DNA of 64,000 nt from an uncultured Sphingobacteriales bacterium (GTDB taxonomy: Bacteria > Bacteroidota > Bacteroidia > Cytophagales > 172606-1): assembly GCA_963844325.1 (NCBI GenBank), contig CAWJNV010000002.1:3897824-3961823 (forward strand). The letters are read 5' to 3'. Below the pieces are notes generated by a model. It had not been told where the DNA came from and did no database searches. It saw only the letters and a list, made by a program, of their open reading frames with translations. Positions 15,321 to 64,000 of this stretch are shown here, piece after piece (within the stretch, counting starts at the first letter, position 1; each line of letters starts with the position of its first letter). The translations under genes were made by a program, and so were the position numbers.

Positions 15321-15368
15321 ATAATTACGAATTACGAATGACGAATGACGAATGACGAATGACGAATT
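15321..15368. repeat. Direct tandem array of 8-bp word (gaatgacg x4) between moeB start and modC end
   Basis: ataattacgaattacgaatgacgaatgacgaatgacgaatgacgaatt. Confidence 0.6.
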
Positions 15369-19903: not shown

Positions 19904-20124
19904 TGGTTGAATGGCTGCATGGCTGCATGGCTATATGGCTATATGGCTATATGGTTGTTGATCGGGAAGGAGTCGTGCGCCAGCCCAACCATACAGCCAT
20001 TCAACCATACAGCCATATAACCATGCAGCCATATAACCATACAGCCATATAACCATACAGCCATATAACCATACAGCCATATAACCATACAGCCATATAA
20101 CCATACAGCCATATAACCATACAA
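19904..20124. repeat. Large 8-bp-word palindrome (CCATNNNN family) with unique core, between convergent genes
   Basis: Left arm ggttgaatggctgcatggctgcatggctatatgg...; core ttgttgatcgggaaggagtcgtgcgccagcccaacc. The right arm has about 17 units of ccatacag/ccatataa. The arm generates spurious ORFs MIVWLYGCMV.... Confidence 0.8.
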
Positions 20125-20502
20125 TCATCTCCCGTGTTTTTTCTCGAAGTACGCGTAGGCTTCGTTGAGCTTCTGGGTGACGGCTTCGGCGAACTGCTTC
20201 TTTTGCGGCTCGTTGTGGAACCGGTCGGGGTGGTATTTCTTCATCATCGTTTTGTAGGCCCGCTTAATCTCTTCGAATGACGCATTGGCGGGGAGTTCGA
20301 GGGCGGCGTAGTAGCCCGCTTCGGGACCGGCGGGTGGAGGTGGGGTTGCCGGCGGGGGATTGGTCGGGCCCGACCTGGGTTGCCAATCGGCGTAATTTTG
20401 CGAACTTGTATCGAAGGCATCTGGCCCCTGCGGCGTGGGCAGGTCCGATGACAGTAAACTGGCCCGCACCAGGCGGCCGAAGCGGCGGAAGAGGGAAGAC
20501 AT
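20125..20502 (-). CDS. J-domain (DnaJ-like) protein
   Basis: C-terminal YYAALELPANASFEEIKRAYKTMMKKYHPDR is a J-domain with the HPD motif. The N-terminal region is proline-rich. Confidence 0.8.
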   Translation of the reverse strand: MSSLFRRFGRLVRASLLSSDLPTPQGPDAFDTSSQNYADWQPRSGPTNPPPATPPPPAGPEAGYYAALELPANASFEEIKRAYKTMMKKYHPDRFHNEPQKKQFAEAVTQKLNEAYAYFEKKHGR

Positions 20503-24139: not shown

Positions 24140-24763
24140 ATGGGAGACGTACTCCTGAAACACAAACGCCTGCTGCTGCTCCTTGCCCTGTTGCCCGTCC
24201 TGCTGCCCGCCCGTGCGCAGGCCGTTTCCTTCGGCATCAAATTTTCGGGCCTCGCCATTCACCCCCGTCCGCAGCCCGTAGCCGGCCAGTACGGCGGCCG
24301 CCTCGACCGCAAGGGTTACGCAGTGATCACCCAGGGCCTGGCCCTCACCCTCGACGTGAACGTGTACCGTAACGTGGGCCTCAAGTTCATCCAGGCGCTG
24401 GTGTGGCGCGACTGCGCCAACAAGTTCGCCATGCTCAGCCACGTGGGCGTCAACTTCTTCGGGGCGGGCACCACGCTGGGCAAGGGTCGGCACGGGTTCA
24501 GCTGGAGCCTGGGACCGGTACTCTACCGGCGGCAATCGTGGAAGGACGTGCCGGGCTACGTGCCCGACGACAGTTGGCTCAAAGCTCCCGCTGGCAGCCG
24601 GTGGGAAACCAAGCTGGTGCTGCTGGGCGGCCAGCTGGAGTACAACTACTATTTCCGCGAGAATTACGGCCTGTCGCTCAACGTGTTGCCGGGCTACCCC
24701 GACGTGATCAGCGTGTCGGGCGGGGTGGGCAGAAGATCAGGATTAACAAGATTAAAGGATTAA
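24140..24763 (+). CDS. Hypothetical secreted/outer-membrane protein (possible PagL-like acyl hydrolase barrel); 3' end runs into repeat
   Basis: MGDVLLKHKRLLLLLALLPVLLPARAQA is the signal. Beta-strand-like alternation follows. The last 9 codons and the stop lie inside the ggattaa-word palindrome. Confidence 0.4.
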   Translation: MGDVLLKHKRLLLLLALLPVLLPARAQAVSFGIKFSGLAIHPRPQPVAGQYGGRLDRKGYAVITQGLALTLDVNVYRNVGLKFIQALVWRDCANKFAMLSHVGVNFFGAGTTLGKGRHGFSWSLGPVLYRRQSWKDVPGYVPDDSWLKAPAGSRWETKLVLLGGQLEYNYYFRENYGLSLNVLPGYPDVISVSGGVGRRSGLTRLKD

Positions 24764-24968
24764 CCGGATGGATCGGGATTAATCGGATTAAAGGATTAGC
24801 AGGATTACGACGACCGAAATCCTCTTAATCTTTTAATCCGGTTAATCCCAATCCTAATCCGGTTAATCTCAATCCGGTTAATCCCGATCCTAATCCGGTT
24901 AATCTCAATCCTAATCCGGTTAATCCCGATCCATCCGGTTAATCCTTTAATCTTGTTAATCCTGATCC
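24735..24968. repeat. 8-bp-word palindrome (ttaatcnn / nngattaa) spanning the 3' ends of two convergent genes
   Basis: gatcaggattaacaagattaaaggattaa (24736-24765) is the reverse complement of ttaatcctttaatcttgttaatcctgatc (24941-24965). Between them lie about 20 tandem 8-bp units (ccggttaatcccaatcctaat...). Confidence 0.8.
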
Positions 24969-27900
24969 TGGCTTCCTGACCCCTTCGGCAATCACCTCGC
25001 GGATGGCGTTGAGTCCTTCGCCGAGGGTGGAGAGTTGGACCATGAGCTGGCCCATCTGGTCGCCGGAGGCGAGGCCCTTGAACTGCTGGTTTTTGCGGAA
25101 AGTCGTTTTGATCTCCGTCCAGCGGGCTTTTTCCTCCTCGGTCAGCAGGCCGTTCAGTTCCTTGAACTTGAGCAGGTTGGCTTCCGCGCCGGTGGTCAGC
25201 GTCTGGGCCTCGTTTTCGTAGTGCGAAAGGATCAGCGTGCGCAGTTCGGCCTCGTTCATGATGGCTACCACCTTGCCGGCAATCTTGTTCATGTTCCGGT
25301 ACGAACCCTGGAGCTTGAACGGCGGTTCGGTACGGAACTCATCGGCTTGAGCCGCCGAATGGATGTACTGGAGGTTGTTGCGCAGGATGAAGTCGCGCAC
25401 CACGAACAGCTTCTTGAGCACGGCCACGTATTCGTTCAGTTCTTCGGCCGCGTAGCCCGCGTCAAATTCCAGCCCGTCCTGGCTATCCGTTTCGGCCAGT
25501 TTGATCAACGTGTAAATGTCCTTCTGGCTCCTCGTGAGCAGCTTGTTGAGGGCCGGGTTGGCCGTGAGGCAGTTTTCGATGTAGCTGAGTTTAAAAATGC
25601 TTTCCGTGTCGCCGATGATGTCACCCAGGTTGTAGGTGTCGGCCCGGTTGGCCAGCATGTCGGGAATTTTGAACTTTTCGCCGCTCTCCGTGTAGGGGTT
25701 GCCGGCCATCACCACGCACACTTTCTTGCCGCGCAGGTCGTAGGTTTTGGGCTTGCCCTGGTAGACGCCCTCAATGCGGCGCTGTCCGTCGCAGAGGGAA
25801 ATGAATTTTTGCAGGAATTCCGGGTTGCAGTGCTGGATGTCGTCCACGTAGATCATCACGTTGTCGCCCATCTCGAAGGCCAGGTTCAGCTTGTTCATCT
25901 CCTCGCGGGCCCCGGCGTTGGGGGCTTCGGCGGGGTCGAGCGACGTAACCCGGTGCCCGATGGCCGGCCCGTTGATCTTCATGAAGATGAGGCCGAGCCG
26001 GTTGGCGACGTACTCCATGAGGGTGGTTTTGCCGTAGCCCGGCGGCGAAATGAGCAGCAGCATGCCCATCAGGTCGGTGCGTTTTTCGGCGCCCACCACC
26101 CCGATCTGCTTGGCGAGGTTGTCGCCGATGAGGGGCAGGTAGAGCTGGTCAATGAGCTTGTTGCGCACGAACGAGGTCAGCACGCGGGGCGTGAATTCCG
26201 CCAGGCGCATCTCCTTCCGCAGCCCTTCGGCCAGCGATTTTTTGCGTTCGTTGAATTGCAGGTAACGCGGTACGGTTTGCCCGGCAAAGCCGGAAAGCCT
26301 TGCCAGGAATGCGTTGAAGTGCAGCGCGTAGGCGTGGTCCCGGATGACCGGGTGCGTGCCGAGCAGGCCCGTCACGGTGCGGCGGGTAGTGGCCGGCACG
26401 ACGCGGCCGCCGTCGAAGCTGCCCAGAAAAAGCAGGGCGGCCGTTTCGTCCACGTAGTCGGCGGCGTCTTCGATCTTGGTGAGGCACTGGCCCACGAAAG
26501 CCTTTACCCAGTGGCGGGCCATGGCGAACCGTTCGGGCGGGGCGGCTTCCAGTTGGGCCAAAGACTGCCGGAAGGTGGTTTCGTGTCCCTGGGCGTGCAG
26601 CGACTCGTGGAAGGCTTCGTACAGCCCGGCGGCTTCGGCGCTGATGATGAACGCATCGCCGCGGGTCAGTTCTTCGAACAGGTAGTCGGCGGCCGGTCCG
26701 GCCAGCGCCGGGTCGAGCAGTTTGGTTTCGGCCACGAACGTTTCCAGTTCATGCCGGAGGTCGGCCAGCACGCTGCCGAAGTCGCGGGTGTGCGGGAATA
26801 CCTTGCGGATGACGCCGATGCCTTTGATCTGGTGGTGCAGCAGCGCCTTGCGGTCGGCGGGAACGAAGCTCTGCCAGTACAACGCGGCCAGGGCCCGGGC
26901 CGGGGCCGCAAAACGCAAGAGGTCGATCTGCCCGTCCAGGTCGAGCAGGGCTTTGAGGAGCAGGGCGGCGTCGTGGTCGTGCACGCCCTTGACGTAGCCT
27001 TCCACGTAACGCGGGGCCATGTAGGCCTGCACGTACGCCAGCAGGGCATCACCCGAAAGCCCGGCCAGTTGGGCCCTGGAGAGATTGTCGCCGGGAGCCG
27101 GTTTGTGGCCGGCCGGCAGGGACCCGGTGCCCGGCGCGGCGGTGGCCTGCCCGTAGATCTGGTAAGCCAGGTACTCGGCCCGGTACACGTCCCCGTTTTC
27201 AGAAACCAGTTCCTGGCCCCACAGGTCGCGGTTGGTGAGCAGGTCGGGGTGGGAGAGGGGTTCGTAGAAGTTGGTGCCGGTCAGGTGGTAATACATTTCC
27301 CCGTCGCGGGTAAGGATGGTCAGGTCCAGCGGCTGGGTGTTCACCGAAAAGGCGTGCTTGCCCAGGCGGATCACGTTCTGGCCGTCCACGAACAAGTCCT
27401 GGCGGTCTTTAAGCTGCCGCACGGCGTCTTCCCGAATGGTTTTGAGGCGGCTCTCGATCTCGTCGGCCTTCACGGGGTCTTCCATCGCCGTGAGCTGCGC
27501 CACGATGTCGCGCACCTTGCCGATCATCAGGTCGCCGGCGAAGTAGCCGTTGATCTCGTTGACGGTCTTGAAGCCGGCCACGCGGTTGGCGATGCCCTTC
27601 AGGATGCGGTCGGCGGCCGACAGCAGCGACTGGGCCCGTTTGTTGCGGGCGTCGGTGAGGACCTGCTTTTTGGCCTCGAAGGCGCTGTACGTCTCTTCGC
27701 GTTTGCCGGCCAGCAGCGTAATGAACTCGTCGAACTCGGCAAACCTGCCTTCCAGTTCTTCCAGTTGCACCATCAGCTTGGTCAGGTACTCGTCGCACCT
27801 GGCGGGGGTGTCGCACACGTCGAGGTAGTTGATGATGCCCTGGGCAATGAGCTTGAGCTGGGCGGCAAATTCGGCCTGGGCCTCCGTGCCGAGCAGGTCC

Positions 27901-29954: not shown

Positions 29955-30060
29955 ATATTTGGGATAGGGTTGAAACCCTATCCTATGGATATTGGGCGCA
30001 GAAGCTTGTATCTTCAACCATCTCGTTGGTAGGATAGGGTTTCAACACTATCCTACTGAT
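29955..30060. repeat. REP-like palindromic units (ggatagggtt-aaaccctatcc) downstream of RAYT gene
   Basis: gggatagggttgaaaccctatcctatgg and ggtaggatagggtttcaacactatcctactg are separated by ggatattgggcgcagaagcttg. Confidence 0.75.
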
Positions 30061-30075
30061 CGGAGACGGTGGGGG

Positions 30076-30516
30076 CTACGGTTCAATGCCAAGGGGAATA
30101 ATGGATGTCCTCAGCGATTCGAGTTCGGCTTCGAAGCCTACCGTTTTGTGGTGCGTCTCCTGGTTCTTGATGTAATTCCGCACGCGTTGTACGTTGGATG
30201 GGCTTACTGAAAAAGCGGCGTAACCATCCTGCCACTCGAATGGCCCCTCCATCAAGCCTTGCCGGTTCAGCCAGTGGGACGAAGCACCTTTGATGTTTTT
30301 GGCAATCTGGCTGATTGAAAGACTGGGCGGCACCGAAAACAGGCAGTGTACGTGATCCTCCACGCCGTTGATGAAATCCAGCTGATACCCCTTCTGCGCC
30401 GCGATGATCCTGATCTGTTTATACAAGGGAATGCGAATTGACTTGTGCAAGATGGGCTCCCGGTTCTTGGTTGCCCAGATCAGGTGAACCCAGAGTGCAG
30501 TAAAAGTTTGTGGCAT
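30076..30516 (-). CDS. IS200/IS605-like Y1 (HUH) transposase, REP-associated tyrosine transposase (RAYT)
   Basis: MPQTFTALWVHLIWATKNREPIL...EDHVHCLFSVPP (HuH motif)...conserved Tyr region (QDGYAAFSV). It is about 147 aa and flanked on both sides by inverted REP clusters. Confidence 0.8.
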   Translation of the reverse strand: MPQTFTALWVHLIWATKNREPILHKSIRIPLYKQIRIIAAQKGYQLDFINGVEDHVHCLFSVPPSLSISQIAKNIKGASSHWLNRQGLMEGPFEWQDGYAAFSVSPSNVQRVRNYIKNQETHHKTVGFEAELESLRTSIIPLGIEP

Positions 30517-30609
30517 TTGCAGGAATAGAAAAGAGTTTGGAACAAGGTTTTGACCCTGTTTCATTCATTAAAGCGAACGTTGAAAAGAAGGAGTCGAATG
30601 TGCTGTGAT

Positions 30610-30880
30610 TGAGTAGGATAGGGTTCGGGGAATAGGAATAGGGTTTGGATATGGGATAGGGTTAAAACCCTATCCTATGGATATTGGGGAGGAAGCTTGC
30701 TAGGTTGGTCATAGCTCAGGTAGGATAGCAGGATAGGGTTTAAACCCTATCCTGCCAATGGGCAAATTGAACCCGCGAACCCAATATCCATAGGATAGGG
30801 TTTTAACCCTATCCCATATCCAAACCCTATCCAAAAAAAACATCCCGCCAACGCTACTCGCCCCGAACCCTATTCCCCAA
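30610..30880. repeat. REP/BIME-like cluster (ggatagggtt-aaaccctatcc units) upstream of RAYT gene
   Basis: At least four units: gggatagggttaaaaccctatcctatgg, caggatagggtttaaaccctatcctg, ataggatagggttttaaccctatcc and others. The same spacer motif ggatattggg..gaagcttg occurs as in the downstream cluster. Confidence 0.8.
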
Positions 30881-33111: not shown

Positions 33112-33278
33112 CGTATGGGAAAATGGAATTTGATTGCTCGAAGGGAATGGTACACGGGATAATGGTGCACTGATTGGTTATGATGATTATGGTTTATTAT
33201 GATCTTTTCTCCGAACCCTTTTTTAAATCAGTCCCAATCATACTCATCATAATCAATCCGTGTACCATCAAACGGGTA
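33112..33278. repeat. 8-bp-word palindrome (gattatga family) inside the yqiJ-flotillin operon
   Basis: ggtacacgggataatggtgcactgattggttatgatgattatggtttattatgatc ... cataatcaatccgtgtaccatcaaacgggtac. A second copy of this family is at 51565-51698. Confidence 0.7.
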
Positions 33279-34478: not shown

Positions 34479-34612
34479 TGGGTTGTATGGTTAAAGGGCT
34501 ATATGGTTAAGTGTTGAATGGCTGTATGGTTGATTGTTGGGGCTGGTGCAGGCGTAAGCAAAACCATTCAGCCATGTGACCATACAGCCATTCAACAATC
34601 AACCATACACCT
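34479..34612. repeat. 8-bp-word palindrome (CCATNNNN family) with related core
   Basis: ggttgtatggttaaagggctatatggttaagtgttgaatggctgtatgg...ggggctggtgcaggcg...ccattcagccatgtgaccatacagccattcaacaatcaaccataca. Confidence 0.7.
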
Positions 34613-34613
34613 C

Positions 34614-42627: not shown

Positions 42628-42759
42628 GGCGTTGGCGGATTTAGGTGAAGGATAGAGTCAATATAAACATCTTTTTCCAAAACCTCCTCGGCCGCCCGCC
42701 TAAATCTTCGCCAACCCGCCTTGTGCCGATGGGACGAGTACGTAGGTGTACCGACAAAC

Positions 42760-42893
42760 GGTTGTATGGCTGAATGGCTGAATGGCTGAATGGTTATATG
42801 GCTAAATGGCTGTATGGTTGACCGGATAGGTCATAGACCATGTAACCATTTAGCCATTCAGCCATATAGCCATTCAGCCATACAACCATTTGC
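42760..42893. repeat. 8-bp-word palindrome (CCATNNNN family)
   Basis: ggttgtatggctgaatggctgaatggctgaatggttatatggctaaatggctgtatgg ... ccatttagccattcagccatatagccattcagccatacaacc. Confidence 0.75.
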
Positions 42894-45587: not shown

Positions 45588-45794
45588 ACGTAGAAGGAGT
45601 TGAGGTACCGGCAAACGCCTGAACCTTGCATTTGCCGGTACCAAAATAACGGCCCGGCCCGCCCCGAAGAAACCCGTGCCGGGGCGGTAACCGCCCGGTG
45701 CCGGGCAGCCCGCGTCAGGATTCGTCCCGTTGCGCAGGTTTGCGGGAAAAATGTACCGCGAACCGGGGGAAAACCTATGTTTCATTTTATACTA

Positions 45795-46140
45795 CGGTAC
45801 ACGACCTCACCCCCAACCCCTCTCCCGGGGAGCTACGATTAGGACACTTTATCTTTTCATCAGGATGAGTACCTTAAAACGCTTTTGGTACCGTCAGGGA
45901 GACACGGGCGGGCGGCCTGCGGACCCTTAGCCGGGTTGATTCCGGGCCGTGGTCAGTTTCGGCTTCGCCGCCGTCAGGGTCTCACTGACGGCTTTTTTGC
46001 GCATTTCGAAGATGTGTCCCAAGCGTAGCTCCCGGGGAGAGGGGAGAAGAATGTGTTCTACAAATATTTGTACAACAGTCCGTTATATCTCCCCTCTCCA
46101 TTTGGAGAGGGGCCGGGGGTGAGGTCGTGTACCGTAGTAT
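45795..46140. repeat. Composite palindromic element of the cccctctcc/ggagagggg family, interrupted by a ~180-bp insert
   Basis: Left half ggtacacgacctcacccccaacccctctcccggggagct (45795-45833). The right part is a full nested palindrome agctcccggggagaggggag...loop...ctcccctctccatttggagaggggccgggggtgaggtcgtgtacc (46016-46140). The insert 45834-46015 ends with the hairpin gccgtcagggtctcactgacggc followed by tttttt. Confidence 0.7.
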
Positions 46141-46148
46141 AGTTTCGT

Positions 46149-48107: not shown

Positions 48108-48215
48108 TTCGAGTAGTGAGTATTGAGTATTGAGTACAGCGCTGCTCATGTAATCCGGGCAAGTTTAAATACGCGGTACTCAATACTCAATACTCACTAC
48201 TTAATACTAACTACC
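48108..48215. repeat. 8-bp-word palindrome (gagtattg / caatactc)
   Basis: gagtagtgagtattgagtattgagtac ... gtactcaatactcaatactcactacttaatactaactacc. Confidence 0.75.
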
Positions 48216-49520
48216 CAACTTCACCCCCAGCACCAGGATATCGTCGGTCTGGCGCCCGGTACCCATCCAGTCGGAGAGGGTTCCTTCGAGGATTTGTTGC
48301 TGGCGTTGCAGGGGTTGGTCGTGGATGGCGTGCAGCAGTTCGCGCAGGCGTTTGCCCATGAACTTGCCCCCGGCCGGTCCGCCGAACTGGTCCTGGAAGC
48401 CGTCGGAGAGCAGGTACAGCACCGACGCGTTCGACAGGTCGAAGGGGTGCAGCCGGAACAGGCGTTCTTCCTCCTTCTGCAAGCCGCCGATGGAATGCTT
48501 GTCGGCCTTTATCTCGTGCAGTTGCCCGTCCTGCACCATCAGGAGTGATGTGCCGGCGCCGGCAAATTCGAGCCGGTTTTCCTTCCGGTCGATCACGCAG
48601 AGGGAGATTTCCATGCCGTCGTGGTTGCCGCCGTCCGACTGGTTGAGGATCTGTCGCACCTTGCCGTGCAGTTCGTAAAGGATCAGGTCGGGCGAAGTAA
48701 TGCCCCACACGTTCACGATCTCGTTGAGCATCGACTGGGCCAGCATGGACAGCAAGGCCCCCGGCACGCCGTGGCCCGTGCAATCAATGGCGGCCAGCAG
48801 CACTTTGTGTCCCCGCTTGCTGCACCAGTACGTATCGCCGCTCACGATGTCGCGCGGCTTGAAGAACACGAACACTTCGGGAAACAGCGTGTGCAGGTAC
48901 GCCAGGCTGGGCATTACGGCCTGCTGAATGCGGCCGCCATACGTGATGCTGGCCAGGATTTTCGCATTTTTTTCCTCCACCAGCTTTTTCTGCGCTTCCA
49001 GTTCGGCCGTGATTAGTTCGGCCCGCCGCAGGTGCAGCCGGAGTTCCAGTTGCGTGATCACCTGCCGGGCCAGGATGCGCAGGGCCTCGAGTTGTTCTTC
49101 GGTCAACCGGCGGGGCTGGCGGTCGATCACGCACAGGGTACCCAGGTTGTAGCCGTCGGGGGTGGTGAGGGGCATGCCCGCGTAAAAACGGATGTTGGGG
49201 TCGCCGGTCACCAGCGGGTTTTCCCGGAAACGGGGGTCGAGGCGGGCGTCGGGCACCTGGAACAATTCGGTGCCCTGAATGGCGTGGGCGCAGAAGGCCC
49301 ATTCGCGGGGCGTTTCAGTCAGGGGCAGCCCCACCCGCGATTTGAACCACTGCCGGCTTTCGTCGAGCAGGGTAATGAGCGAAATGGGCGTGTTGCAGAG
49401 CTGGGAGATGACCTGGGTGATCTCGTCAAATTCTGCTTCAATTTCCGTATCTAGTATTTCGTAGCGCAGCAAAGCCGCGAGTCGTTCGGCCTCGTTGGTC
49501 GGGAGTTGGGCAATGATCAT
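48207..49520 (-). CDS. GAF-domain PP2C-family (SpoIIE/RsbU-like) protein serine/threonine phosphatase
   Basis: The N-terminal GAF region is followed by a C-terminal PP2C: ...SGDTYW...AAIDCTGHGVPGALLSML...LYLLSDGF.DQF.... Confidence 0.75.
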   Translation of the reverse strand: MIIAQLPTNEAERLAALLRYEILDTEIEAEFDEITQVISQLCNTPISLITLLDESRQWFKSRVGLPLTETPREWAFCAHAIQGTELFQVPDARLDPRFRENPLVTGDPNIRFYAGMPLTTPDGYNLGTLCVIDRQPRRLTEEQLEALRILARQVITQLELRLHLRRAELITAELEAQKKLVEEKNAKILASITYGGRIQQAVMPSLAYLHTLFPEVFVFFKPRDIVSGDTYWCSKRGHKVLLAAIDCTGHGVPGALLSMLAQSMLNEIVNVWGITSPDLILYELHGKVRQILNQSDGGNHDGMEISLCVIDRKENRLEFAGAGTSLLMVQDGQLHEIKADKHSIGGLQKEEERLFRLHPFDLSNASVLYLLSDGFQDQFGGPAGGKFMGKRLRELLHAIHDQPLQRQQQILEGTLSDWMGTGRQTDDILVLGVKLGS

Positions 49521-49869
49521 TGGTGCGTTAAACGGATTGGGGCCTGGGTGGCTGAAAGCACAAAAATAGGCTCCGGCAACCCTCCCCGGCGTTTTTTCAC
49601 CGCCCGCACCTTACCCGGCTGCTTTTTCGCCGGGATGACGGAGGGCATTCTTTGACGGGCTTTCAGCTCTTTGGGTACCAGTGAGTTGGTACGCCCATCC
49701 TTTTAGGGGACGCCGCCGGCGGGCCGGGCAGGCTGCCGGCAGGGGCGGGGCCACCCCGAAAAGCACTCTTCCCGGCATTTTCCTTACGCGGGAATGCGTG
49801 CCTTTGCCGGTTACCTTTGCCGGATTTGTTTACGAAAAAATGAAATGGGCAACAGACAGCGGCGGATGA

Positions 49870-50940
49870 TCATCCATTCCGTTTCGCGTCGGTGTACTCC
49901 ACCAGGTAGCAGGTAACGGTAGTGCCCCGCCCGACGGTGCTGTCGAACCGGATTTTGCCGCCGTTTTTCTCCACCATGTTCTTGACCAGGTACAGGCCCA
50001 GTCCCTTGCCGTCGCCCCGGGTCGTGAGACGGGAAAACGGCCGGAAAAGCTTGTGGCCCTGCCGCGTGAGGTCAATGCCCGCGCCGTTGTCGGCAAAGGC
50101 CAGCGTTACAAACTCCCCTTCCCGGCCCGACGCTACGGCAATGGCCGGGGGGCGGTCCTCCGACCGGTACTTGGCGGCGTTGCCCAGCAGGTTGCGGAAA
50201 ATGCTTTCGAGGTACGCCCGGATGTAGCTCACCCGGGGGCAGGCGGTAAAGTCGGCCGCCACCGTAAGGGTCGCTCCCGCCGGGTCGGCCGCCAGTTCTT
50301 TCCGCACCCCGGCCAGGATCGCTTCCAGGGAGACGGGCTGCACGGTCACGTGGAAAGTGCTCTGTACTTCCAGCACCTCCACGAGTCCCTTGATCGTGCG
50401 GTCGAGCTGGGCCACCGACTGCTGCGTGGTTTCCAGCAGGACCTGCCGCTGGGCCTCCTCGGGGTCGCCCATGAGCAGTTTGGTGAGCACGATCAGGTTG
50501 GCTACCGGCGCCCTCAGGTCGTGGGCCGCCGTGTAGACGAACGTTTCCAGGTGCCCGCTTACCTTGGCCAGTTCGGCCTGCGACCGGCGCAGGTCCGACA
50601 GGTTGCGCAGCACCGACAACGCGCCGGTTGCCGGGAGGCCGCCGGGCGTGGTTTCGGGGACTACCTCCACGGCGTAGTGCCGGGGGGCGGACGGGTCGCC
50701 GCAGCGCACCTCGGCCGCGCCGGGAGACCGGGAGCCCAGCACCGCCCGCAGGGCAACGTCCCAGGCGCCGGCCCCGTCCAGGGAAGTCAGCCCCGGCACC
50801 GGCCGGCCCAGCACCGTTGCCGCCGGCAGGCCCGTTTCCCGCTCAAACGCCGCGTTGACGAACGTGATTACGCCGTCGCCGTCGTGCCGGGCAATGGCTA
50901 CCGGCAAGGTGTTGAGCAGTGTTTTCCAGCTTTCTTCCAT
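49870..50940 (-). CDS. PAS-domain sensor histidine kinase (cytoplasmic)
   Basis: The N-terminal PAS (ITFVNAAFERETGLPAATVLGRP) is followed by the H-box FVYTAAHDLRAPVANL and the N/G boxes NLLGNAAKY, DNGAGIDL and GKGLGLYLV. The start is ATG at 50940; an in-frame TTG lies at 50955. Confidence 0.8.
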   Translation of the reverse strand: MEESWKTLLNTLPVAIARHDGDGVITFVNAAFERETGLPAATVLGRPVPGLTSLDGAGAWDVALRAVLGSRSPGAAEVRCGDPSAPRHYAVEVVPETTPGGLPATGALSVLRNLSDLRRSQAELAKVSGHLETFVYTAAHDLRAPVANLIVLTKLLMGDPEEAQRQVLLETTQQSVAQLDRTIKGLVEVLEVQSTFHVTVQPVSLEAILAGVRKELAADPAGATLTVAADFTACPRVSYIRAYLESIFRNLLGNAAKYRSEDRPPAIAVASGREGEFVTLAFADNGAGIDLTRQGHKLFRPFSRLTTRGDGKGLGLYLVKNMVEKNGGKIRFDSTVGRGTTVTCYLVEYTDAKRNG

Positions 50941-50955: not shown

Positions 50956-51088
50956 GGTTGAATGGCTATATGGCTGAATGGCTGAAAGTTGATTGTTGAA
51001 TGGCTATATGGTTGGGCTGGCGCACGACTCCTTCCCGATCAACAACCATTCAGCCATACAGCCATTCAACCATATAACCCTTTAGGTC
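50956..51088. repeat. 8-bp-word palindrome (CCATNNNN family) sharing the unique core of the 19904 element
   Basis: The core atggttgggctggcgcacgactccttcccgatcaacaaccat is the exact reverse complement of 19949-19990. Confidence 0.8.
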
Positions 51089-51553
51089 CTATACATTTTT
51101 CGGTTTCCGGTAGCTGGGCAGGTCGTTGACCAGCAGCCAGTAGTGTACCACTTCGGCAATGGTAAGGGAATATTTGACGAAGTTCATTGCCTTGATGATG
51201 AAGCTGTTGGCGCCCAGCTGGTACGCTTCCCGCATCTGTTCTTCGGAGGCCGATACGGTAATGACTACCACCGGGATGCTGCTGGTGGCGGGATCGGTTT
51301 TAAGGGCTTCGAGCACCTCGTTGCCCCGCACCTTCGGAAGGTCGAGGTCGAGCAGGATGAGCAGCGGCAGGCTGTACTCCCGGCCCTGGTAGGCCCCCCG
51401 GCGGAACAGGTAATCGAGGGCCTCTGCCCCGTCGCGGATGTGGTGGTACTGGAGGGCCGGCATTTTGGCCTTCAATGCCTTGAACGTCAACTCGGCGTCG
51501 TAGTCGCTGTCTTCGATCAGCAGCAGTTCGGGATGGGCGGCAAGCATAGGCAT
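51089..51553 (-). CDS. Stand-alone response-regulator receiver (CheY-like) protein
   Basis: LLIEDSDYDAEL...LLILLDLDLPKVRG...ANSFIIK has the receiver Asp pocket and the phospho-acceptor D in LDLDLP. Confidence 0.8.
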   Translation of the reverse strand: MPMLAAHPELLLIEDSDYDAELTFKALKAKMPALQYHHIRDGAEALDYLFRRGAYQGREYSLPLLILLDLDLPKVRGNEVLEALKTDPATSSIPVVVITVSASEEQMREAYQLGANSFIIKAMNFVKYSLTIAEVVHYWLLVNDLPSYRKPKNV

Positions 51554-51564
51554 CTAAAATGAAG

Positions 51565-51698
51565 GGTACACTGACATTGGTACACTGATCGGTTAGGATG
51601 ATTATGATTTTTTATGATCTTTTTTTAGCATTCTTTTCTGATTCGTTTTAATCATAATTATCATAACCCATCAGTGTACCATCCATCCGTGTACAAAT
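51565..51698. repeat. 8-bp-word palindrome, second copy of the gattatga family seen at 33112
   Basis: ggtacactgacattggtacactgatcggttaggatgattatgatt ... aatcataattatcataacccatcagtgtaccatccatccgtgtac. Confidence 0.7.
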
Positions 51699-54153: not shown

Positions 54154-54554
54154 ACATCCTGCACATTGAAGACGACCCGCATTGCGTGGAACTCATGCAG
54201 CGGGCCATTGGGAAGCTGGGCCGGCCGCTGGATGTCCACGCGGTAACCGACGGGGAACTGGCGCTGAAGTTCCTGTCGGCGCGGGAGTGGCCGCCCCGGC
54301 TGATCGTGCTCGACCTGAAGATACCCAAGGTGAACGGCTTGCAGCTACTGGCGCAGTTGCGGGCGGAGGAGAAGACGCGCACCGTGCCCGTGATCGTGTT
54401 TTCCTCTTCGAAGGAGCCCCGCGACGTGGCCCTCTCGTACCAGGCCGGCGCCAACAGCTACGTGATCAAACCCCTCGAATACAAAGACTTCTTCGAAGCC
54501 GTCCAGCGCATCATCAACTACTGGCTCGGCGTCAACTACGCGGACGGGGGGTGA
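54141..54554 (+). CDS. Stand-alone response-regulator receiver protein
   Basis: ILHIEDDPHCVEL...LIVLDLKIPKVNG...ANSYVIKP. It overlaps the kinase gene by 13 bp. Confidence 0.8.
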   Translation: MHYVDILHIEDDPHCVELMQRAIGKLGRPLDVHAVTDGELALKFLSAREWPPRLIVLDLKIPKVNGLQLLAQLRAEEKTRTVPVIVFSSSKEPRDVALSYQAGANSYVIKPLEYKDFFEAVQRIINYWLGVNYADGG

Positions 54555-54722
54555 GGTTGAAAAGCTGTATGGTTGTATGGTTGTATGGTTAGATGGCTGA
54601 AGGGCCGGGGGGATAACTGGACCGGAGGGTTTTGTAGCCCTTCGGTTTTTATTTGCGGGGAAAAAATCAATTTTTGTACACCATACAACCATACAACCAT
54701 ACAACCATACAACCATACAACT
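54555..54722. repeat. 8-bp-word palindrome (ccatacaa x5 / ttgtatgg) with internal terminator-like stem
   Basis: ggttgaaaagctgtatggttgtatggttgtatggttagatgg ... ccatacaaccatacaaccatacaaccatacaaccatacaac. The core carries ccggagggttttgtagcccttcgg followed by ttttt. Confidence 0.75.
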
Positions 54723-54752
54723 TCCTAACCTCCCAACCCCTAACCTCCTCCT

Positions 54753-57127: not shown

Positions 57128-57721
57128 CCCGCCGGGGCGGCCCCTGAAACTGGGGGCAACCGTCGTTAAAACGGCAAGGGCAGGGACCGGGCTTACCATC
57201 CCGTCGCCAAAAAAAGGGACTGTTTGGATTTAAAAATACGCCGGGCGTTCGTTTTTCCGAATCCGCTTAATGTGGGTTCTCCGTATGTAGGGCGTATTTA
57301 ACGAATCGGTCCGTGAGCCCCGGTCTTATGGGCTGGCGGTCAGCGGCTTGCTCCCTTGAATGCGTAACGCTGAGTGCGTAGCGGTGTTAACCGGCCGGTT
57401 TGCAACAAATTTTTGACCAGCCGGAGTCCCCGAAAGGATTTTTTCCCATGCGTAATTACAATTCCGTCAGTGGCCGCCCCCGGGCAGGCCCCTGCTTGTG
57501 CAACCTTAACTTAACTTCTCCCGATGATGCTGGCTGTTACCATCAACATGAGCATTCCTGAATACAATAGTATGAAGGAAGCCATTGGCCGTTTTTCGGA
57601 GCCCGTGCGTTACAAAGACGTGCTGGTCACGGACATGGCCGCCACGGTTACCCTCTACGTGTCGCGCCCCGCCGTCCTCTTCCAACTCGCCCTGACCATG
57701 GATAAGGTGAGGAGGAAGTAG

Positions 57722-57925
57722 GGAATGAAGGAGTTGGGGAGTTTAGGAGTTAGGGAGTTTGAGCGTTGGAGGGTTGGAGAAATTGAGCGTTGGGTAAATA
57801 CACATTCATAAAAACACCAGTGCGTAAAAGTGTGTCCAGAATTTCTCTTTTGCGCAGAAATTCCAACTCCCTTTCAACGCTCAAATTCCCTAACTCCATA
57901 ACTCCCAAACTCTCTAACTCCCTAC
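57722..57925. repeat. 8-bp-word palindrome (nnnttgga / tccaannn)
   Basis: gaatgaaggagttggggagtttaggagttagggagtttgagcgttggagggttggagaaattgagcgttggg ... ttccaactccctttcaacgctcaaattccctaactccataactcccaaactctctaactccc. Confidence 0.75.
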
Positions 57926-60608
57926 AGCCTCGGGTCGAGGGGTTCGCTTTCGAGGGCCAGGACGGCAAAGACGCATTCGTGCACGTGGCGGAGGGGCGCC
58001 CCGCCCACGAAGCGTTCGAGGGCTTCCAGGCCCAGGGCGAACTCGCGCAGGGCCAGCGACCGCTTGGCCCCCAGGCCCCGTTGCCGGAGCCGCTCCAGGT
58101 TGGCCGGGGCGTCGTATTCGGGGCCGTAGATGATGCGCAGGTATTCGGGGCCGCGGCACTTGACGGCCGGCTGCACGAGGCCCTTGCTCCCCCGGGTCAC
58201 GTAATCCAGGGGTTTTACCACCATGCCCTCGCCGCCCTTGCCGGTCAGGCCGAGCCACCACTCGATGGCAGCGGCCCGCTGGTCGTCGCGGGAGAGGTCT
58301 ACCACGCGGTAGGGCGTAGCCACCAGCCACTGCGGGTCGGCGGCGCAGACCTCGCGGATGCTGTCCAGGTGCCACCCGTGGTCCTTGTCGGCGTGCACGG
58401 CCCCTTCGGTCGCCAGGAGGTGGAAGGGCGCCAGGCGGTAGTCGTCCAGCGAATGCACCGGCCAGCAGTACCGCCGGTAGGCTTCCGTGAAACGCTCCGC
58501 CATCCCTTGCCGGGCCGCGTACGCATCGAGCAGCCCGTCTACGGCCAACCCCCGCGACCGGGCGGCGCTTGAGGGCGTCGAGCACGGCCGGCAGGGCGGC
58601 CCGGGAAGCGGCACCCACGGCGGCGTACTGGTTTTGCAGCAGTGCCTGCGCCTTGGCCGACCACGGCATCAGCTCGGTGTCGAGGCACACCCAGTCGGTG
58701 TTGAACTTTCTCCCAGAAGCCCGAACCGGTGAGGGCGGCGCGGACCCGTTCGAGGAAGGCGTTTTCCAGTGCCCCGTCGTTGAAGAAGGGGCGGCCGGTG
58801 CGGGTGTAGCACACGCCGGTTTCCCGCGCCGACCCGAACCGGCGCAGGGCCGCCGCTTCGTCGCGGCACACCACCACGACCGCCCGGGAACCCATGTGTT
58901 TTTCCTGGCATACCACCGTGCGCACGCCCACCGAGGCGTAGTGCGCCAGGGCTTCGGCCGGGTGTTCGAGGTAGCCCGGCAGCTTGCTGGTCTCCGACGG
59001 CGACATGGTGGGCGGCAGGTAGATCAGCCACTTGGGGTCCACGGCGAAGCGGCTCATCACCTCCAGGGCCGCCGACGCGTTTTCCGCCCGCACCGAGACG
59101 TTGTTGGCCAGCCGGGTGACCACGATGCGCTTGCCCAGCACCTCGTCGATGTCGAGCAACGCGTCGCTCTGCTGCTGCGCCGACGGGGCGTCGGCCCGTT
59201 CGTCGGGCTGGCGCAGGGGCCGCGCCGGTTCGTAGTACACCCGGCCGGCGGGCACGCTCACCAGTTCCCGCTCGGGATACCGCAGGGCCGTCAGTTCGCC
59301 CCCGAACACGCAGCCCGTGTCGATGTCGATGGTGTTGTTGAGCCATTCGGGCTCGGGTACCGGCGTGTGGCCGTACACCACCATTGCCTTGCCCCGGTAG
59401 TCGGCGGCCCAGTTGTAGCGGACGGGCAGGCCAAACTCGTCGGTCTCGCCGGTGGTTTCGCCGAAGAGGCAAACGACCGCACCGCCCCCGAGCCGCGGCC
59501 CTGCATTTCTTCTTTCAGCCCGGCGTGGGCCACCACCAGCCGGCCCCCGTCGAGCACGTAGTGGCTCACCAGCCCGTCGATGAATTGCCGTACTTGTGCC
59601 AGAAAAGCATCCGGCTCCCCGGCCAGTTGTTCCATCGTCTGGGCCAGGCCGTGCTTGATCTGCACGTTTTTGCCCCACAGTTTGCGCAGGAGCTTTATCG
59701 TCGTGGTTGCCGGGCACGCACAGGGCCGTGCCGGCGCGGACCATGCCCATCACCAGCCTGAGCACGGCCGGCGAGTCGGGTCCGCGGTCCACGAGGTCGC
59801 CCACGAACACGGCCGTGCGGCCCGGCGGGGGCACTACTTCGGTTTCGCCCGGAGCCCCGCCGGCCGGCCGTACTTCGTAGCCCAGCTTTTCGAGCAGCTG
59901 GGCCAGTTCGGCGTAGCAGCCGTGCACGTCGCCGATGATGTCGAAGGGGCCCGTGCGGTGGCGGAGGTTGTTGTAGAGGGGCTGCCGTTCGATGCCCGCC
60001 ACGGCGTCCACTTCTTCCGCGGAACGCAGCACGTGCACGTGGCGGAAGCCTTCCCGCTTGAGGTCGGGCAGGGAGCGGCGCAACTGGCTGCGGTGCTGGG
60101 CAATCACGTGGCGGCCGAAGTTGCGGTCGGGGCGGGCCTGGTTGCGGTCCTGGCACAGCCGTTCGGGCACGTCGAGCACAATGGCCACGGGCAGGCAGTG
60201 GAATTCGCGGGCCAGCTGCACGAGCGGCTTGCGGCTTTCGGGCTGCACGTTGGTGGCGTCCACGACGGTGAGCAGGCCGCGTTTGAGCCGCTTGCGGACG
60301 ATGAAGTGCAGCAGTTCGAAGGCGTCGCCGCTGGCGGACTGGTTGTTTTCGTCGTCCGACACCACGCCGCGGCAGGCGTCCGACGACACGATTTCGGTGG
60401 GCTTGAAGTGCCGGCGGGCAAACGTCGATTTACCCGAACCGGACGCCCCGATCAGCACCACCAGCGACAATTCGGGAATTTGTAGGGTCATATTGGTTTT
60501 GTTTAAGGAGTGAGAAGCGAGGAGCGAGAAGTGAGGAGTGAAAAGGCGGAGCACGAACTTGTACTGGGCTAACGGGTAAAGTACGTCTCCATTCTTCTCG
60601 CTTCTCAC
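57922..60608 (-). pseudogene. pnkp: Polynucleotide kinase-phosphatase/ligase Pnkp (RNA repair), disrupted by at least four frameshifts
   Basis: N-terminal kinase MTLQIPELSLVVLIGASGSGKSTFARRHF; phosphatase FDIIGDVHGCYAEL...ALCVPGNHDDK; C-terminal ligase-like region. The reading frame switches near 59697, 59480, 58700 and 58590; tracks 58539..60608, 59291..59665, 57914..58690 and 57922..58614 each carry part of the protein. Confidence 0.75.
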
Positions 60609-62026
60609 TCCTCGCTTCTCGCTCCTTTTTCAAACACTGCCATTTGCGACGGGGCGCCGGCATCGGGCGATTCGGGGCCGACGGGGTGGAAGCGGACCGA
60701 GTAGCCGTAGGTGCCGGCGATCTGGCCGCCCCAGGCTTCGAACTCGGCGCGGGTCCACTCGAACCGGTGGTCGGCGTGGCGGAAGGCGCCGGCCGACAGG
60801 GATTCGTAGAGCCGGTTGTACTCGGCGTTGGGCGTAGTGACCACCACTGTGCCCGGCCGGGCGTGGCCGAACACCACCCCTCCGAAGGCTTCCAGCCGTC
60901 CCGGGTCAAGGTGTTCGATCACTTCCACCACCGCCGCCGCGTCGTAGCCCATCAGGCGCTTGTCGCGGTACACCACCGACCCCTGCATGAGCGTAATGCG
61001 TTGCCGTTCGCGTTCGGGCAGGCGGTCGAAGTTGAGCTTGTCGCGGGCCATCTCCAGGGAGCGGGGCGACACGTCCATGCCCAGGATCGTTTGGAACTGT
61101 TTTTCGCGGAGCAACAGCCGCAGCAGTTTCCCTTCGCCGCAGCCCAGGTCGAGCACCCGGGTGGCGCCCGAGGCTTTGAGTTGTTCGAAGGCCGACTCCA
61201 GGCGCAACAGGTGCAGCGACTGCCGTTGGGCAACCACTTCGGCGGGTACCTCGTCGGGGTCGTCGGCTTCCGGGTCGCCGGCCTCCAGCAGCGAGAAGGC
61301 CTGCCGGGTGAGGGCGCCCAGGTTTTTGAGGTAGCGCCGCGTGATCTGTTCCCGTTCCGGGTGCGTTTGCAGCCAGCCTTCCCCCTTTGCCAGCAGCTTT
61401 TCCACCTCGTGTTCGCCGATCCAGTAGTGCTTGTCGTTGTCGAGCACCGGGATGAGCACGTAGAGGTGGGCCAGCAGGTCGCGGAGGCGCCGCCGCCCGG
61501 AGAGGGTCACCGTGAAGTAGCGGCTCGGGCCCCAGTCGGGAAACGTTTCGTCGAGCGGGTAGCCCTGCGCGTCTACGGCGTAGCCCAGCGGCTCGAACAG
61601 GCGCCGCAGCAGCCCTTCGCCGCCCCGTACGGGCAGCACCGACAGCGTCACCGTGAAGGGCAAGGGCGTGTCCACCAGTTCGGGCCGGTCCTTGCAGGTG
61701 CCGTTCATGGCCGTGGCAAAAGCTTTGGCGAGGGCCACTGCCAGGAACGACGAGGCCACGTACGGCCGGTCGTTGACGTAGTGTTCGAGGGCGAAGTTGT
61801 CGCCGGCGGGGCCTTTGGCGTTGCGCACCAGCCCGACCGGGTCAATGTCGAGCAGCAGGGCCACCGTGCAGCGTTCCGCGGAGGCTTCCGGGTAGAAAAT
61901 GTGCGCCTGGCCCGCCGAAAGCTCCACCGACTGCACCCTTGCCGGGTTCTTGTGCAGCAGGTAGCCCAGGTCGGTGGCGGGGGTATGGGTAGTAGTGATG
62001 GTGAGGAGCATGGGGTAAAGGGTCAA
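60605..62026 (-). CDS. hen1: Hen1 3'-terminal RNA ribose 2'-O-methyltransferase (bacterial Pnkp partner)
   Basis: 473 aa. The C-terminal MTase has RVLDLGCGEGKLL (SAM motif I) and VVEVIEHLDP. An N-terminal Hen1-specific domain is present. The 4-bp start/stop overlap with pnkp is typical of the pnkp-hen1 operon. Confidence 0.8.
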   Translation of the reverse strand: MTLYPMLLTITTTHTPATDLGYLLHKNPARVQSVELSAGQAHIFYPEASAERCTVALLLDIDPVGLVRNAKGPAGDNFALEHYVNDRPYVASSFLAVALAKAFATAMNGTCKDRPELVDTPLPFTVTLSVLPVRGGEGLLRRLFEPLGYAVDAQGYPLDETFPDWGPSRYFTVTLSGRRRLRDLLAHLYVLIPVLDNDKHYWIGEHEVEKLLAKGEGWLQTHPEREQITRRYLKNLGALTRQAFSLLEAGDPEADDPDEVPAEVVAQRQSLHLLRLESAFEQLKASGATRVLDLGCGEGKLLRLLLREKQFQTILGMDVSPRSLEMARDKLNFDRLPERERQRITLMQGSVVYRDKRLMGYDAAAVVEVIEHLDPGRLEAFGGVVFGHARPGTVVVTTPNAEYNRLYESLSAGAFRHADHRFEWTRAEFEAWGGQIAGTYGYSVRFHPVGPESPDAGAPSQMAVFEKGARSEE

Positions 62027-62135
62027 TAGTCATTGGTACATTGGTCATTGGTTGATTGGTCACGGGTCAATAGTCATCCGGATGCGTTGACTTACGCGTA
62101 CCCAATGACTAATGCACCAATGACCAATGACCGTC
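62027..62135. repeat. 8-bp-word palindrome (gtcattgg / ccaatgac)
   Basis: gggtcaatagtcattggtacattggtcattggttgattggtcac ... gtacccaatgactaatgcaccaatgaccaatgacc. Confidence 0.75.
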
Positions 62136-62930
62136 CTAATTGAGCAGCAACTGCCGGCCTTCGGTTTCGCCGGGGGAATGGGTGATCAGGTTGAGGATCA
62201 TTTCGCGGTAGCCGGCGATGGGCAGTTCCACCTCGCGGTGCAAGGTACGGCGCAGCACCTGGGTTTCGGTGTTGCGCACCGGGTCGAAGCCTTTGCGCTG
62301 GGCCATCTTCCAGTAGAAGCCCATGCCCCGTTTCTGCCAGGCGGGCAGGTCGTTGTAGTTGATGCCCAGGCTGAAGAGCAGTTCGTTCTTTTCGCTCACC
62401 GACAGCTTGTAGATGCGTTCCGAGGCTTCGCGCAGCGAGAGGCCCCGTTCGCGGAGCTTCCAGTAGCAGTAGGCGCTCAGGGCATTGCGGTTGGCGTCTT
62501 CGGCCCGCCAGCTGAAGTAGTCGGCCACCACCTTTTCGGTGGGCAGCACCGACAGCCGGGCGTCGAAGGCGCCGATGTGGCCCAGGGCGTGCGTAAAGGC
62601 GGCGCTGGCTTCACCGGCCAGGACTGAGAGCAGCTTGCGGTGCAGGCGGTTGAACGAGGCGTCGTCGCGGTGGAAGAGCAGGGAGATTTCGTCGCTCTGC
62701 GTGTAGCCGTAGGTGAAGTTGAAGCCGCTCTGCATGAGGTGTTCGGTGGCGGCACTCATGGCTTCGCGGAACCGGAAGTCGAAAGGTTTTTCCAGGTACA
62801 GGGTTTCTTTGGTCAGCTTGGTAAAGCCCCGGCCGTCGAGGCGGGCCACGATGTAAAACCCGGGCGGTACCGACTGGTCGGCGGCCGTTTCGTAGAGCCG
62901 CATCTTCTCGTCCAGTTGCGAAAATTTCAT
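62136..62930 (-). CDS. Thg1-like protein (tRNA-His guanylyltransferase family, 3'-5' nucleotidyltransferase)
   Basis: MKFSQLDEKMRLYETAADQSVPPGFYIVARLDGRGFTKLTKE...YGYTQSDEISLLF has the Thg1 N-terminal catalytic Asp/Glu pattern. The upstream in-frame extension to 63200 is non-protein-like. Confidence 0.75.
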   Translation of the reverse strand: MKFSQLDEKMRLYETAADQSVPPGFYIVARLDGRGFTKLTKETLYLEKPFDFRFREAMSAATEHLMQSGFNFTYGYTQSDEISLLFHRDDASFNRLHRKLLSVLAGEASAAFTHALGHIGAFDARLSVLPTEKVVADYFSWRAEDANRNALSAYCYWKLRERGLSLREASERIYKLSVSEKNELLFSLGINYNDLPAWQKRGMGFYWKMAQRKGFDPVRNTETQVLRRTLHREVELPIAGYREMILNLITHSPGETEGRQLLLN

Positions 62931-63438
62931 ATAGCTAGTATTTTGAGTCAGTTGAGACATGGGTTGAGGACATGGGTTGGTACAAGTACCGGAAACAGGC
63001 ATTACGGGCAGCCACAGCAAGGGCAACCCGGCAAGCAGGGTCGGGCGGACGGGCCATTGGGGTCCTTTTCGCCCTTTTTGCCACCAAGACACTACGGCAC
63101 GAAGGAGCACCAGGAGAAACCCCTGCGCGTACCGGCACCACAAGCCGGGTGCGGCCGGAACAGCGGTCAGACAAACTCCCGGGGCGGCGGATGATTGCAT
63201 AAATAATCTTTAGGAATCTTCAGGAAAAACGGGCAACAGCGTGCCGGGCAAAAACACATAACGGACGAAATGCCGGATACGGGATAGCCGGTCCGGAGAA
63301 AGTATTTTACTGCTTTGGTTTAGAAGTCGGTTTCACGAAAAAGAGGGTTTCACGAAAAAGTGGGTTTCACGCAAAGACGCAAAGGAAGACCGCAAAGGGC
63401 GCAAAGAAGGAGCCCTAACTGCCGCATTCTCTTTCTTG

Positions 63439-63755: not shown

Positions 63756-63906
63756 GTGCTATACTAAGGTGCAAGACCTCACCCCCGGCCCCTCTCCCAA
63801 GGAGAGGGGAGAATAACCTGTTTTATAATAACCTGTTTGACAAATATTTATGTCTCCCCTCTCCTTGGGAGAGGGGCCGGGGGTGAGGTCTTGCACCTTA
63901 GTATGG
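63756..63906. repeat. Nested palindrome of the cccctctcc/ggagagggg family (intact copy of the 45795-46140 element)
   Basis: tatactaaggtgcaagacctcacccccggcccctctccc aaggagaggggaga ...loop... tctcccctctcc ttgggagaggggccgggggtgaggtcttgcaccttagtat. Confidence 0.75.
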
Positions 63907-64000
63907 TGCCGTGCCCATATGACGCTTTGTTACTTTGGTCTTCTTCACTTTGTGCCCTTTTCCGCGTCAGCCTCCTTCCCGATCCTCCTCCGGTCTGCCG

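Follow-up and report, generated by a model that had tools for sequence, protein, structure and literature searches.

The STRR heptamers of cyanobacteria and Mrazek's LSSRs (5-11-nt units) belong to the short tandem intergenic repeats. Foldback (FB) elements are eukaryotic, kilobase-sized and transposase-linked, and they have target-site duplications. Quasipalindrome template-switch mutation and ectopic gene conversion between dispersed repeats are established bacterial mutational mechanisms, template switching being known from single engineered or natural quasipalindromes; to our knowledge, no genome-wide hairpin family that exchanges its centres has been described. Here we compare with these systems a 64-kb stretch of DNA (the window, meaning the whole stretch that was analysed), in which two intergenic hairpins, elements A and B, carry the same core in opposite orientations between arms of tandem octamers.

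The arms resemble the short tandem intergenic repeats of cyanobacteria, Beggiatoaceae and Bacteroidetes (TAACTGA; PMC4679880), with tandem units of 7-9 nt in intergenic positions that adjoin starts or stops. As with TAACTGA-type repeats, copy number varies between relatives, the distribution over phyla is patchy, and there is no assigned function (PMC4679880). The arrays here are tandem and intergenic, and their unit number differs between the window and R1, a contig from a relative. Unlike the direct arrays of STRRs and LSSRs, however, the octamer arrays are mirrored to form a long hairpin around a unique core, and the cores appear to be exchanged between loci; in the Beggiatoa genome, only one inverted set was reported among otherwise direct arrays (PMC4679880).

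Elements A and B also share with the REP, BIME and REPIN sequences of proteobacteria (PMC3116915, PMC3733652) an extragenic, palindromic character, a position at 3' ends or between cistrons in either orientation, the lack of target-site duplication, and dispersal within the genome. The spacer filled by element A is convergent and that filled by B intercistronic and, reminiscent of REPs with their RAYT (Y1) transposases, a palindrome-flanked Y1 transposase gene is present in the window. A REP, however, measures only 20-40 nt and is a conserved, imperfect palindrome that carries a GTAG or CGTC tag (PMC3733652), whereas the arms of A and B are variable-octamer arrays of 50-140 nt, and it is their loop that is conserved. 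Neither tag is present in the core or inner arms of A and B. Unlike the REPIN case, hairpins of GGATAGGGTT, and not octamers, border the Y1 gene, so that the window contains no cognate RAYT for the octamer hairpins.

Foldback elements of Drosophila and other eukaryotes (cf. PMC3169594) likewise combine tandem-subrepeat arms of variable length with a non-repeated loop. They are the nearest architectural parallel, but A and B are bacterial and lack target-site duplication, and the likeness is one of analogy only, with no homology. MITEs, such as the minisatellite-bearing MITE of Porphyromonas gingivalis (PMC4596501), are similarly small, non-coding and intergenic, with inverted ends and internal tandem repeats, and that example comes from the Bacteroidota; in contrast to MITEs, neither defined termini nor a target-site duplication was found for A and B, nor, within the window, a parent IS. 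There are 2 core copies in 64 kb, 0 in 1.03 Mb of other loci and 0 in genome, metagenome and viral collections, and the one transposase gene seen in the window, IS200-like and at 30076-30564, is bordered by other palindromes. The palindromic microsatellite elements of Fusarium mitochondria (PMC7218506) are also palindromic simple repeats that change length by slippage and vary in presence between close species, but they are mononucleotide (A)n/(T)n elements of a fungal organelle with no shared unique core reported (PMC7218506). A literature search that included literal repeat strings did not find the octamer-armed hairpin architecture, with incomplete coverage that makes this no proof of novelty. 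Overall, the octamer-armed hairpins appear to be a new variant among known kinds of bacterial intergenic repeat.

Anatomy of elements A and B

The window has a G+C content of 61% and contains approximately 17 long intergenic hairpins. In many of them the arms consist of tandem units of 7, 8 or 9 nt, and six belong to the octamer type. The octamer arms have the consensus ATGGYTRN on one side and its complement on the other; in A and B they form terminal inverted arrays that are 80-87% complementary over ~55 nt and are mirrored around a unique core of 26-36 nt. TRF identified arrays of period 8 and 16 in both arms. The parts of A and B and their neighbouring genes are as follows.

19067-19903, + strand: metallophosphoesterase gene, upstream of A
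19903-19957: left arm of A, 7 tandem octamers (ATGGTTGA, ATGGCTGC x2, ATGGCTAT x3, ATGGTTGT)
19935-20005, + strand: 71-nt tract of A common to A and B, 94.4% identity, comprising the core and ~2 inner arm units on each side
19955-19990, + strand: core of A, 36 nt, at the apex of the hairpin
19987-20124: right arm of A, 17 octamers, including the 16-mer AACCATACAGCCATAT x8.6 at 96% (TRF)
20125-20502, - strand: DnaJ-domain gene, convergent on A
49870-50940, - strand: PAS/HisKA sensor kinase gene, downstream of B, with its ATG at 50938-50940
50956-51009: low-coordinate arm of B (3' arm in the RR-to-HK transcript), including the irregular unit GTTGATTGTTGAATGG
50995-51065, - strand: 71-nt tract of B common to A and B, 94.4% identity
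51010-51045, - strand: core of B, 36 nt, at the apex of the hairpin, on the + strand the exact reverse complement of the A core
51046-51088: high-coordinate arm of B and a 9-nt spacer to the response-regulator stop (CTA, 51089-51091)
51089-51553, - strand: response-regulator gene, upstream of B

Element A occupies the entire 221-nt spacer between the stop codons of its convergent neighbours. Its first base doubles as the final A of the TAA that ends the gene at 19067-19903, and AATCAT, the degenerate unit that closes the array, runs over the DnaJ stop (TCA). The host is a soil Cytophagales bacterium, and in the adjoining metallophosphoesterase its nearest named relatives, Fibrella and Larkinella, are only ~58-60% identical. 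The 16-mer x8.6 of the right arm is an unpaired, lineage-specific and recent slippage expansion. Element B is intercistronic, lying between the response-regulator stop and the kinase ATG on the - strand. The calculated folds of A and B have energies of -83.9 kcal/mol (z -6.5) and -63.3 kcal/mol (z -6.9), respectively. No target-site duplication was found at either element: the flanks CAATTGTA and CTCCCGTG of A form no direct repeat, nor do the flanks CTGCAAGG and CTTTAGGTC of B.

The 36-nt core TTGTTGATCGGGAAGGAGTCGTGCGCCAGCCCAACC occurs exactly twice in the window, with 0 mismatches, at sites 31 kb apart, and ~26 nt of it (TGATCGGGAAGGAGTCGTGCGCCAGC) cannot be read as arm units. In 100 shuffles there were 0 matches to the core even with 3 mismatches permitted; the agreement of the two cores is far beyond chance. 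When the window was compared with itself by BLAST, the match grew to 71 nt with 94.4% identity (19935-20005 versus 51065-50995, E 4e-24). All 4 differences fall at variable positions of the arm units adjoining the core, giving 0 mismatches in the 36-nt core versus 4 in the flanking 35 nt. Relative to the transcript of the upstream gene, the core has the same orientation in A and B, which means little with n = 2.

An earlier note on this DNA had described a 34-bp core present in both orientations. Two exact copies do lie on opposite strands, at a length of 36 nt rather than 34. Its view that these are copies of one sequence and not independent hairpins is supported, and the arms differ in word order and number as it had said, with 7 left and 17 right units in A and ~6 units per side in B. 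The note had named local duplication as a competing cause; BLAST finds the flanks of A and B to be unrelated beyond the 71-nt tract, and a segmental duplication was rejected on this ground, and an A-B inversion on colinearity with R1.

We found no third copy of the core in the 64-kb window or in 1.03 Mb of other loci, and exact scans returned 0 matches in genome and metagenome contig collections (23-nt query) and in viral contigs (27-nt query). An exact 13-nt piece of the core, GATCGGGAAGGAG, lies at the very end of the window (63972-63984, - strand; E 0.02 with respect to the window). Chance probably accounts for this match, though it could also be a vestige of the core's source.

Further hairpins in the window and in other genomes

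The window contains the following additional features.

34479-34613: element C, an octamer hairpin; its core, TTTTGCTTACGCCTGCACCAGCCCCAACAATCAACC, reads on the - strand and spans 34533-34568
9725-9829: octamer hairpin with a different loop, between convergent genes
42755-42892: octamer hairpin with a 12-nt loop, missing at the orthologous R1 site
54546-54748: octamer hairpin with a 76-nt loop containing a terminator-like stem followed by a T-run
3986-4062, 10900-10930, 15323-15367, 24735-24969, 48111-48218, 57712-57931, 60498-60634 and 62021-62132: other tandem-armed hairpins or arrays, with 7-, 8- or 9-nt units
30076-30564, - strand: IS200/IS605-family Y1 transposase gene (Pfam Y1_Tnp E 1e-29; NCBIfam transpos_IS200 80.5 bits versus a cut-off of 55; PDB ISDra2 and IS608 TnpA)

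Element C folds as well as A and B. The relatedness of its core to that of A and B, also claimed earlier, appears marginal at best (TGCGCCAG-CCCAAC versus TGCACCAGCCCCAAC, shuffle p ~0.012, the match being partly arm sequence), and we do not rely on it. The C core is clearly related to a hairpin core at L123, a metagenome contig of 61% G+C, where the flanks and the locus are unrelated.

Unit type shifts gradually along some arms (GGAGTTGG, AAGGTTAG, AAGGCTGA, ATGGCTAT; 9715-9770 and 54718-54748 in the window, 2262-2328 in L127), a series that bridges the GGAGTTAG-type octamers and the ATGG-type ones. The 9725 site is occupied in R1 by a hairpin purely of the GGAGTTAG type, and the window carries a MoaE gene in addition (9837-10247). 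The units of the other tandem-armed arrays are of unrelated sequence (ATCAGTA, AATGACC, AATGACG, GGATTAACC, GAGTATT, GGAGTTAG, AGGAGCG and GGTCATT), and the majority of the arrays with 7-, 8- or 9-nt units fill spacers that follow stop codons. The heptamer GGTCATT is a cyclic permutation of the cyanobacterial STRR2 unit TTGGTCA.

A second dispersed hairpin family, at 45788-46141 and 63761-63904, has arms of the form TATACTA-GGT-CA-GACCTCACCCCC...CCCCTCTCC with a similarity of ~90% from one locus to the other; in R1, the site orthologous to 45788 lacks a copy. The divergent spacer at 51578-51681 contains a hairpin with TGGTACACTGATCGG...-type arms, of which there is an 89% partial copy at 33163-33208, and R1 is without this hairpin. 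The flanks of the Y1 gene (29960-30060 and 30617-30830) carry at least 5 copies of a GGATAGGGTTnAAACCCTATCC hairpin, on both sides, in a RAYT-like layout; the gene itself scores 28.7 for REP_Tyr_transpos, below the cut-off of 80. Tandem-armed hairpins also lie between the genes of an RNA-repair cluster (57914-63200, - strand) composed of Hen1 (60605-62026), Pnkp (58539-60497) and a Thg1-like gene (62136-63200). The Pnkp frame at 58539-60497 comprises the kinase, the phosphatase and the start of the ligase domain, and the ligase continues in an overlapping ORF at 57914-58690, suggesting either a frameshift or an erroneous start call. A 634-aa protein encoded at 2075-3979 (+ strand) consists of nine helicase-associated (HA, PF03457) domains.

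We scanned for ATGGYTRN arrays, with one genome per species and nearly four consecutive units required, and recovered at least 111 loci. Approximately two-thirds of the matches listed are from Bacteroidota (Hymenobacter, Saprospiraceae, Chitinophagaceae, Prolixibacteraceae and Flavobacteriales), and Calditrichota, Ignavibacteria, Anaerolineae and CPR Peregrinibacteria are also represented among them. Octamer hairpins outside the Bacteroidota include L093, L096 and L083 (Peregrinibacteria), L012, L073 and L108 (Calditrichaceae), and L011 (Anaerolineae), and octamer arrays occur in 12 viral contigs (IMG/VR; L129-L140). With 5 from the window counted in, 33 arrays among the matches listed are paired into hairpins. 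In 16/33 of these hairpins the left boundary, and in 18/33 the right boundary, is no more than 15 nt away from the stop codon of a long ORF, versus 6.6% at control positions. Loops that look like bidirectional terminators (a stem and a T-run) are found in L034, L099 and the 54546 hairpin of the window.

Core sharing within a genome recurs in three unrelated genomes, once in opposite orientation. In Hymenobacter gummosus, the cores of L016 and L049 match at 32/35 positions in opposite orientation on different contigs, and HyVt-532 (a Bacteroidetes MAG) and a Peregrinibacteria MAG each have hairpin pairs with clearly related cores.

Orthologous sites and the origin of the shared centre

R1 is JGI contig Ga0456421_04323 (L114, L127), which is colinear with the window over 7.5-55 kb at 83-93% nucleotide identity (~88%). 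Shorter metagenomic contigs from relatives (L112, L113 and L115-L117) were also compared. None of the relatives examined has the core at its A or B site. The R1 A site has a 100-nt octamer hairpin with the loop ACCCATAAATTGGAGACTTA in place of the core, and a 97-99% identical strain co-occurring with R1 has an identical element there. In L112 and L113 the A-site spacers are unrelated (192 nt in L112, which is as close as R1 there), so residence of the A hairpin is taken from R1 alone.

Five states make up a series at the B site. In R1, five units are followed by the loop AGGTCAATTGGATC and two more units; in L116 there is a hairpin of 128 nt whose loop is TCTAC; L115 has three right-arm units only; and L117 has a 38-nt spacer with zero units, the core being absent from all four. 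Near this site, R1, L116 and L117 carry an additional response-regulator gene between the kinase and GAF-SpoIIE genes (L114 5348-5737), where the window has ~24 nt (49845-49869). At the 54546 site, the loop is ~97% conserved with R1 while the surrounding units number 5 versus 3 and 3 versus 2. These whole-unit changes between relatives, at the 54546 site and over the five states of the B site, agree with the earlier proposal of VNTR-like variation in arm length. At the 24735 9-mer hairpin, comparison with R1 indicates that the outer arms persist and the centre is replaced.

Several outer features are common to orthologous sites. The unit suffix GC is rare, with 3/56 window units, all in A, and accounts for 5/8 units at the R1 A site, and the outermost unit AATCAT over the DnaJ stop is present both in A and at the R1 A site. 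The window and R1 B sites both start with GGTTATATGG, and the 3' boundary AACC|TT is common to four relatives. As judged by these comparisons, the outer arm units are site-specific, inherited in place and VNTR-like. The right end of the shared tract coincides with the start of B's irregular unit CAACAATCAAC, which is also present at the L116 B site, and in the opposite arm there; this hints that centres may also flip via exchange between arms.

Both sites carry octamer hairpins in R1, indicating that the A and B hairpins were probably resident before the window and R1 split and that the 71-nt centre arrived later. With occupied sites and site-specific outer units, the moving part would be the centre, of ~71 nt. 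There is no inversion between the A and B sites relative to R1, so the transfer would be non-reciprocal, and because palindromic arms are homologous both ways, the inverted cores can be explained without insertion in two orientations. We therefore favor, with slightly less than even confidence, a reading in which A and B are long-resident hairpins of one class and the identical centre is a recent non-reciprocal copy into one of them. The source of the copy could be the other hairpin or a third, unseen one. The earlier note had pictured a mobile or amplifiable unit with changing arms; expansion and contraction of the arms by whole units holds, and the whole element does not look like something inserted at two empty sites.

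The mechanism that we infer is gene conversion or template switching between octamer hairpins. The tip of an extruded hairpin would be its fragile part, and a break or stalled fork would presumably start there, after which the repair or nascent strand would take another octamer hairpin as template. All arms are mutually homologous, and in both orientations since each element is palindromic; the donor loop and its innermost units could consequently be copied in either orientation while the outer units of the recipient stay. Independently, replication slippage would gain or lose whole units and produce the VNTR-like arm length. As in quasipalindrome template switching and ectopic conversion, this would explain mirrored arm changes, copying of the centre, non-reciprocal transfer without inversion, and the lack of target-site duplication. 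In terminator-proximal inverted repeats, spacers are more polymorphic than arms (PMC13155455), and an event initiated at the tip fits both this excess of spacer polymorphism (PMC13155455) and the turnover of centres seen here.

Some observations count against copying of the centre. With two copies, the ends of the tract are indistinguishable from generic arm similarity, and a perfect core next to 4/35 flanking mismatches would also fit a small, discrete inserted unit. In addition, all but one of the R1 A-site units are ATGA-type and all window A units are ATGG-type, which would call for homogenisation of the arrays or for replacement of much more than 71 nt.

The main rival, which we consider possible but rather improbable, holds that the ~71-nt segment is a tiny non-autonomous REP- or REPIN-like mobile hairpin that inserts into single-stranded hairpin tips, possibly via an IS200/IS605 Y1 (HUH) transposase. 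Transposition by IS200/IS605 Y1 enzymes leaves no target-site duplication, as is the case at A and B, and a Y1 gene is present in the window at 30076-30564; that gene, however, is flanked by its own palindromes, GGATAGGGTT..AACCCTATCC, which are neither octamers nor the core. The perfection of the core beside differing arm units, the presence of hairpins at both recipient sites beforehand, and the recurrence of a C-type core at an unrelated locus of another genome (L123) would all suit such an element. Against it stand the lack of a third copy in the window, the 1.03 Mb of loci and the genome, metagenome and viral collections, the absence of a GTAG or CGTC tag, and the inability of two copies to define termini. 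Distinctly less probable in our judgment is that the whole element, arms and core, is a foldback- or MITE-like transposon that inserted at both loci in either orientation, replacing the prior sequence, with arms that later diverged by slippage. Its inverted-repeat architecture with subrepeat arms, the ATGG-type units of A where R1 has ATGA-type units, the spread of the ATGGYTRN octamer over phyla, and presence or absence between close relatives (42755 versus R1; the A site versus L112 and L113) point in that direction. The 42755 hairpin, though, offers no clean empty site, as the entire spacer differs in R1, and no target-site duplication was found in this filled/empty pair or at A and B. The R1 sites are already octamer hairpins that share rare outer units and boundaries with the window, the A and B arms outside the 71-nt tract are no more alike than any two octamer arrays, and the window yielded no transposase whose ends match.

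Selection rather than recent copying could have kept the core as a functional motif, such as a protein- or RNA-binding loop or a small RNA. The common orientation of the core to the upstream transcript and the conserved, terminator-like loop of another octamer hairpin (54546) would agree with this, yet the core was found at neither orthologous site in any relative examined, matches nothing in the genome, metagenome and viral collections and no Rfam family, has no U-tract or promoter consensus at A or B, and shows folding energies without strand asymmetry, which together make the idea very unlikely. That one centre was written twice in a mis-assembled, repeat-rich hairpin is scarcely credible. 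Short-read assemblies of the same organism do break at these hairpins (Logan contigs end beside A and B), but the window belongs to a 7.72-Mb contig, the A and B arms differ, are site-specific and match their orthologues, and the analogous inverted pair of Hymenobacter gummosus comes from an independent assembly.

Possible roles and significance of octamer hairpins

We searched the window and its hairpins for indications of function. Rfam gave 0 matches over the whole window at the gathering threshold, and at permissive E-values A and B gave sub-threshold matches to miRNA precursors only, which are generic hairpin noise. Neither a terminator-like site (G+C-rich stem with a U-tract) nor a sigma-70 promoter was detected at A or B. 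Asymmetry of folding energy and of G-U pairs across 15 hairpins, examined to distinguish RNA from DNA structures, revealed no consistent bias to the transcribed strand. The idea that the arms provide stop codons in all three frames was rejected, as it is true of GA/AA units but not of the GT/AT units dominant in this genome. The likeliest role of the octamer hairpins is that of RNA or DNA structures at 3' ends or between cistrons, whether useful or simply tolerated, and the core has no evident function of its own.

A broader proposal, which we regard as unlikely, is that hairpins of the form (ATGGYTRN)n-core-(NYARCCAT)n constitute an undescribed multi-phylum class at stop codons that grows and shrinks by whole units and whose centres are exchanged or received by a dedicated, hairpin-directed process. 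Candidates for that process would be a Y1/HUH enzyme, or a nuclease that cleaves the tip followed by templated repair. If this were true, the A/B pair would be a case caught in the act.

In the decades since short tandem intergenic repeats became known in Bacteroidota and cyanobacteria, they have been given neither a mechanism nor a function. The hairpins described here give them a defined architecture of mirrored arrays that abut stop codons and surround a unique core. Two resident hairpins with the same acquired centre and with their local arms retained would amount to a natural experiment, and the A/B pair allows one to ask how such repeats evolve, by slippage and by transfer of centres. 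It would become testable whether hairpin tips are hotspots of break-induced, homology-driven exchange, and whether a Y1 transposase or host repair is the driver. Because these hairpins break short-read assemblies and are hypervariable, they may also be of use as strain markers.
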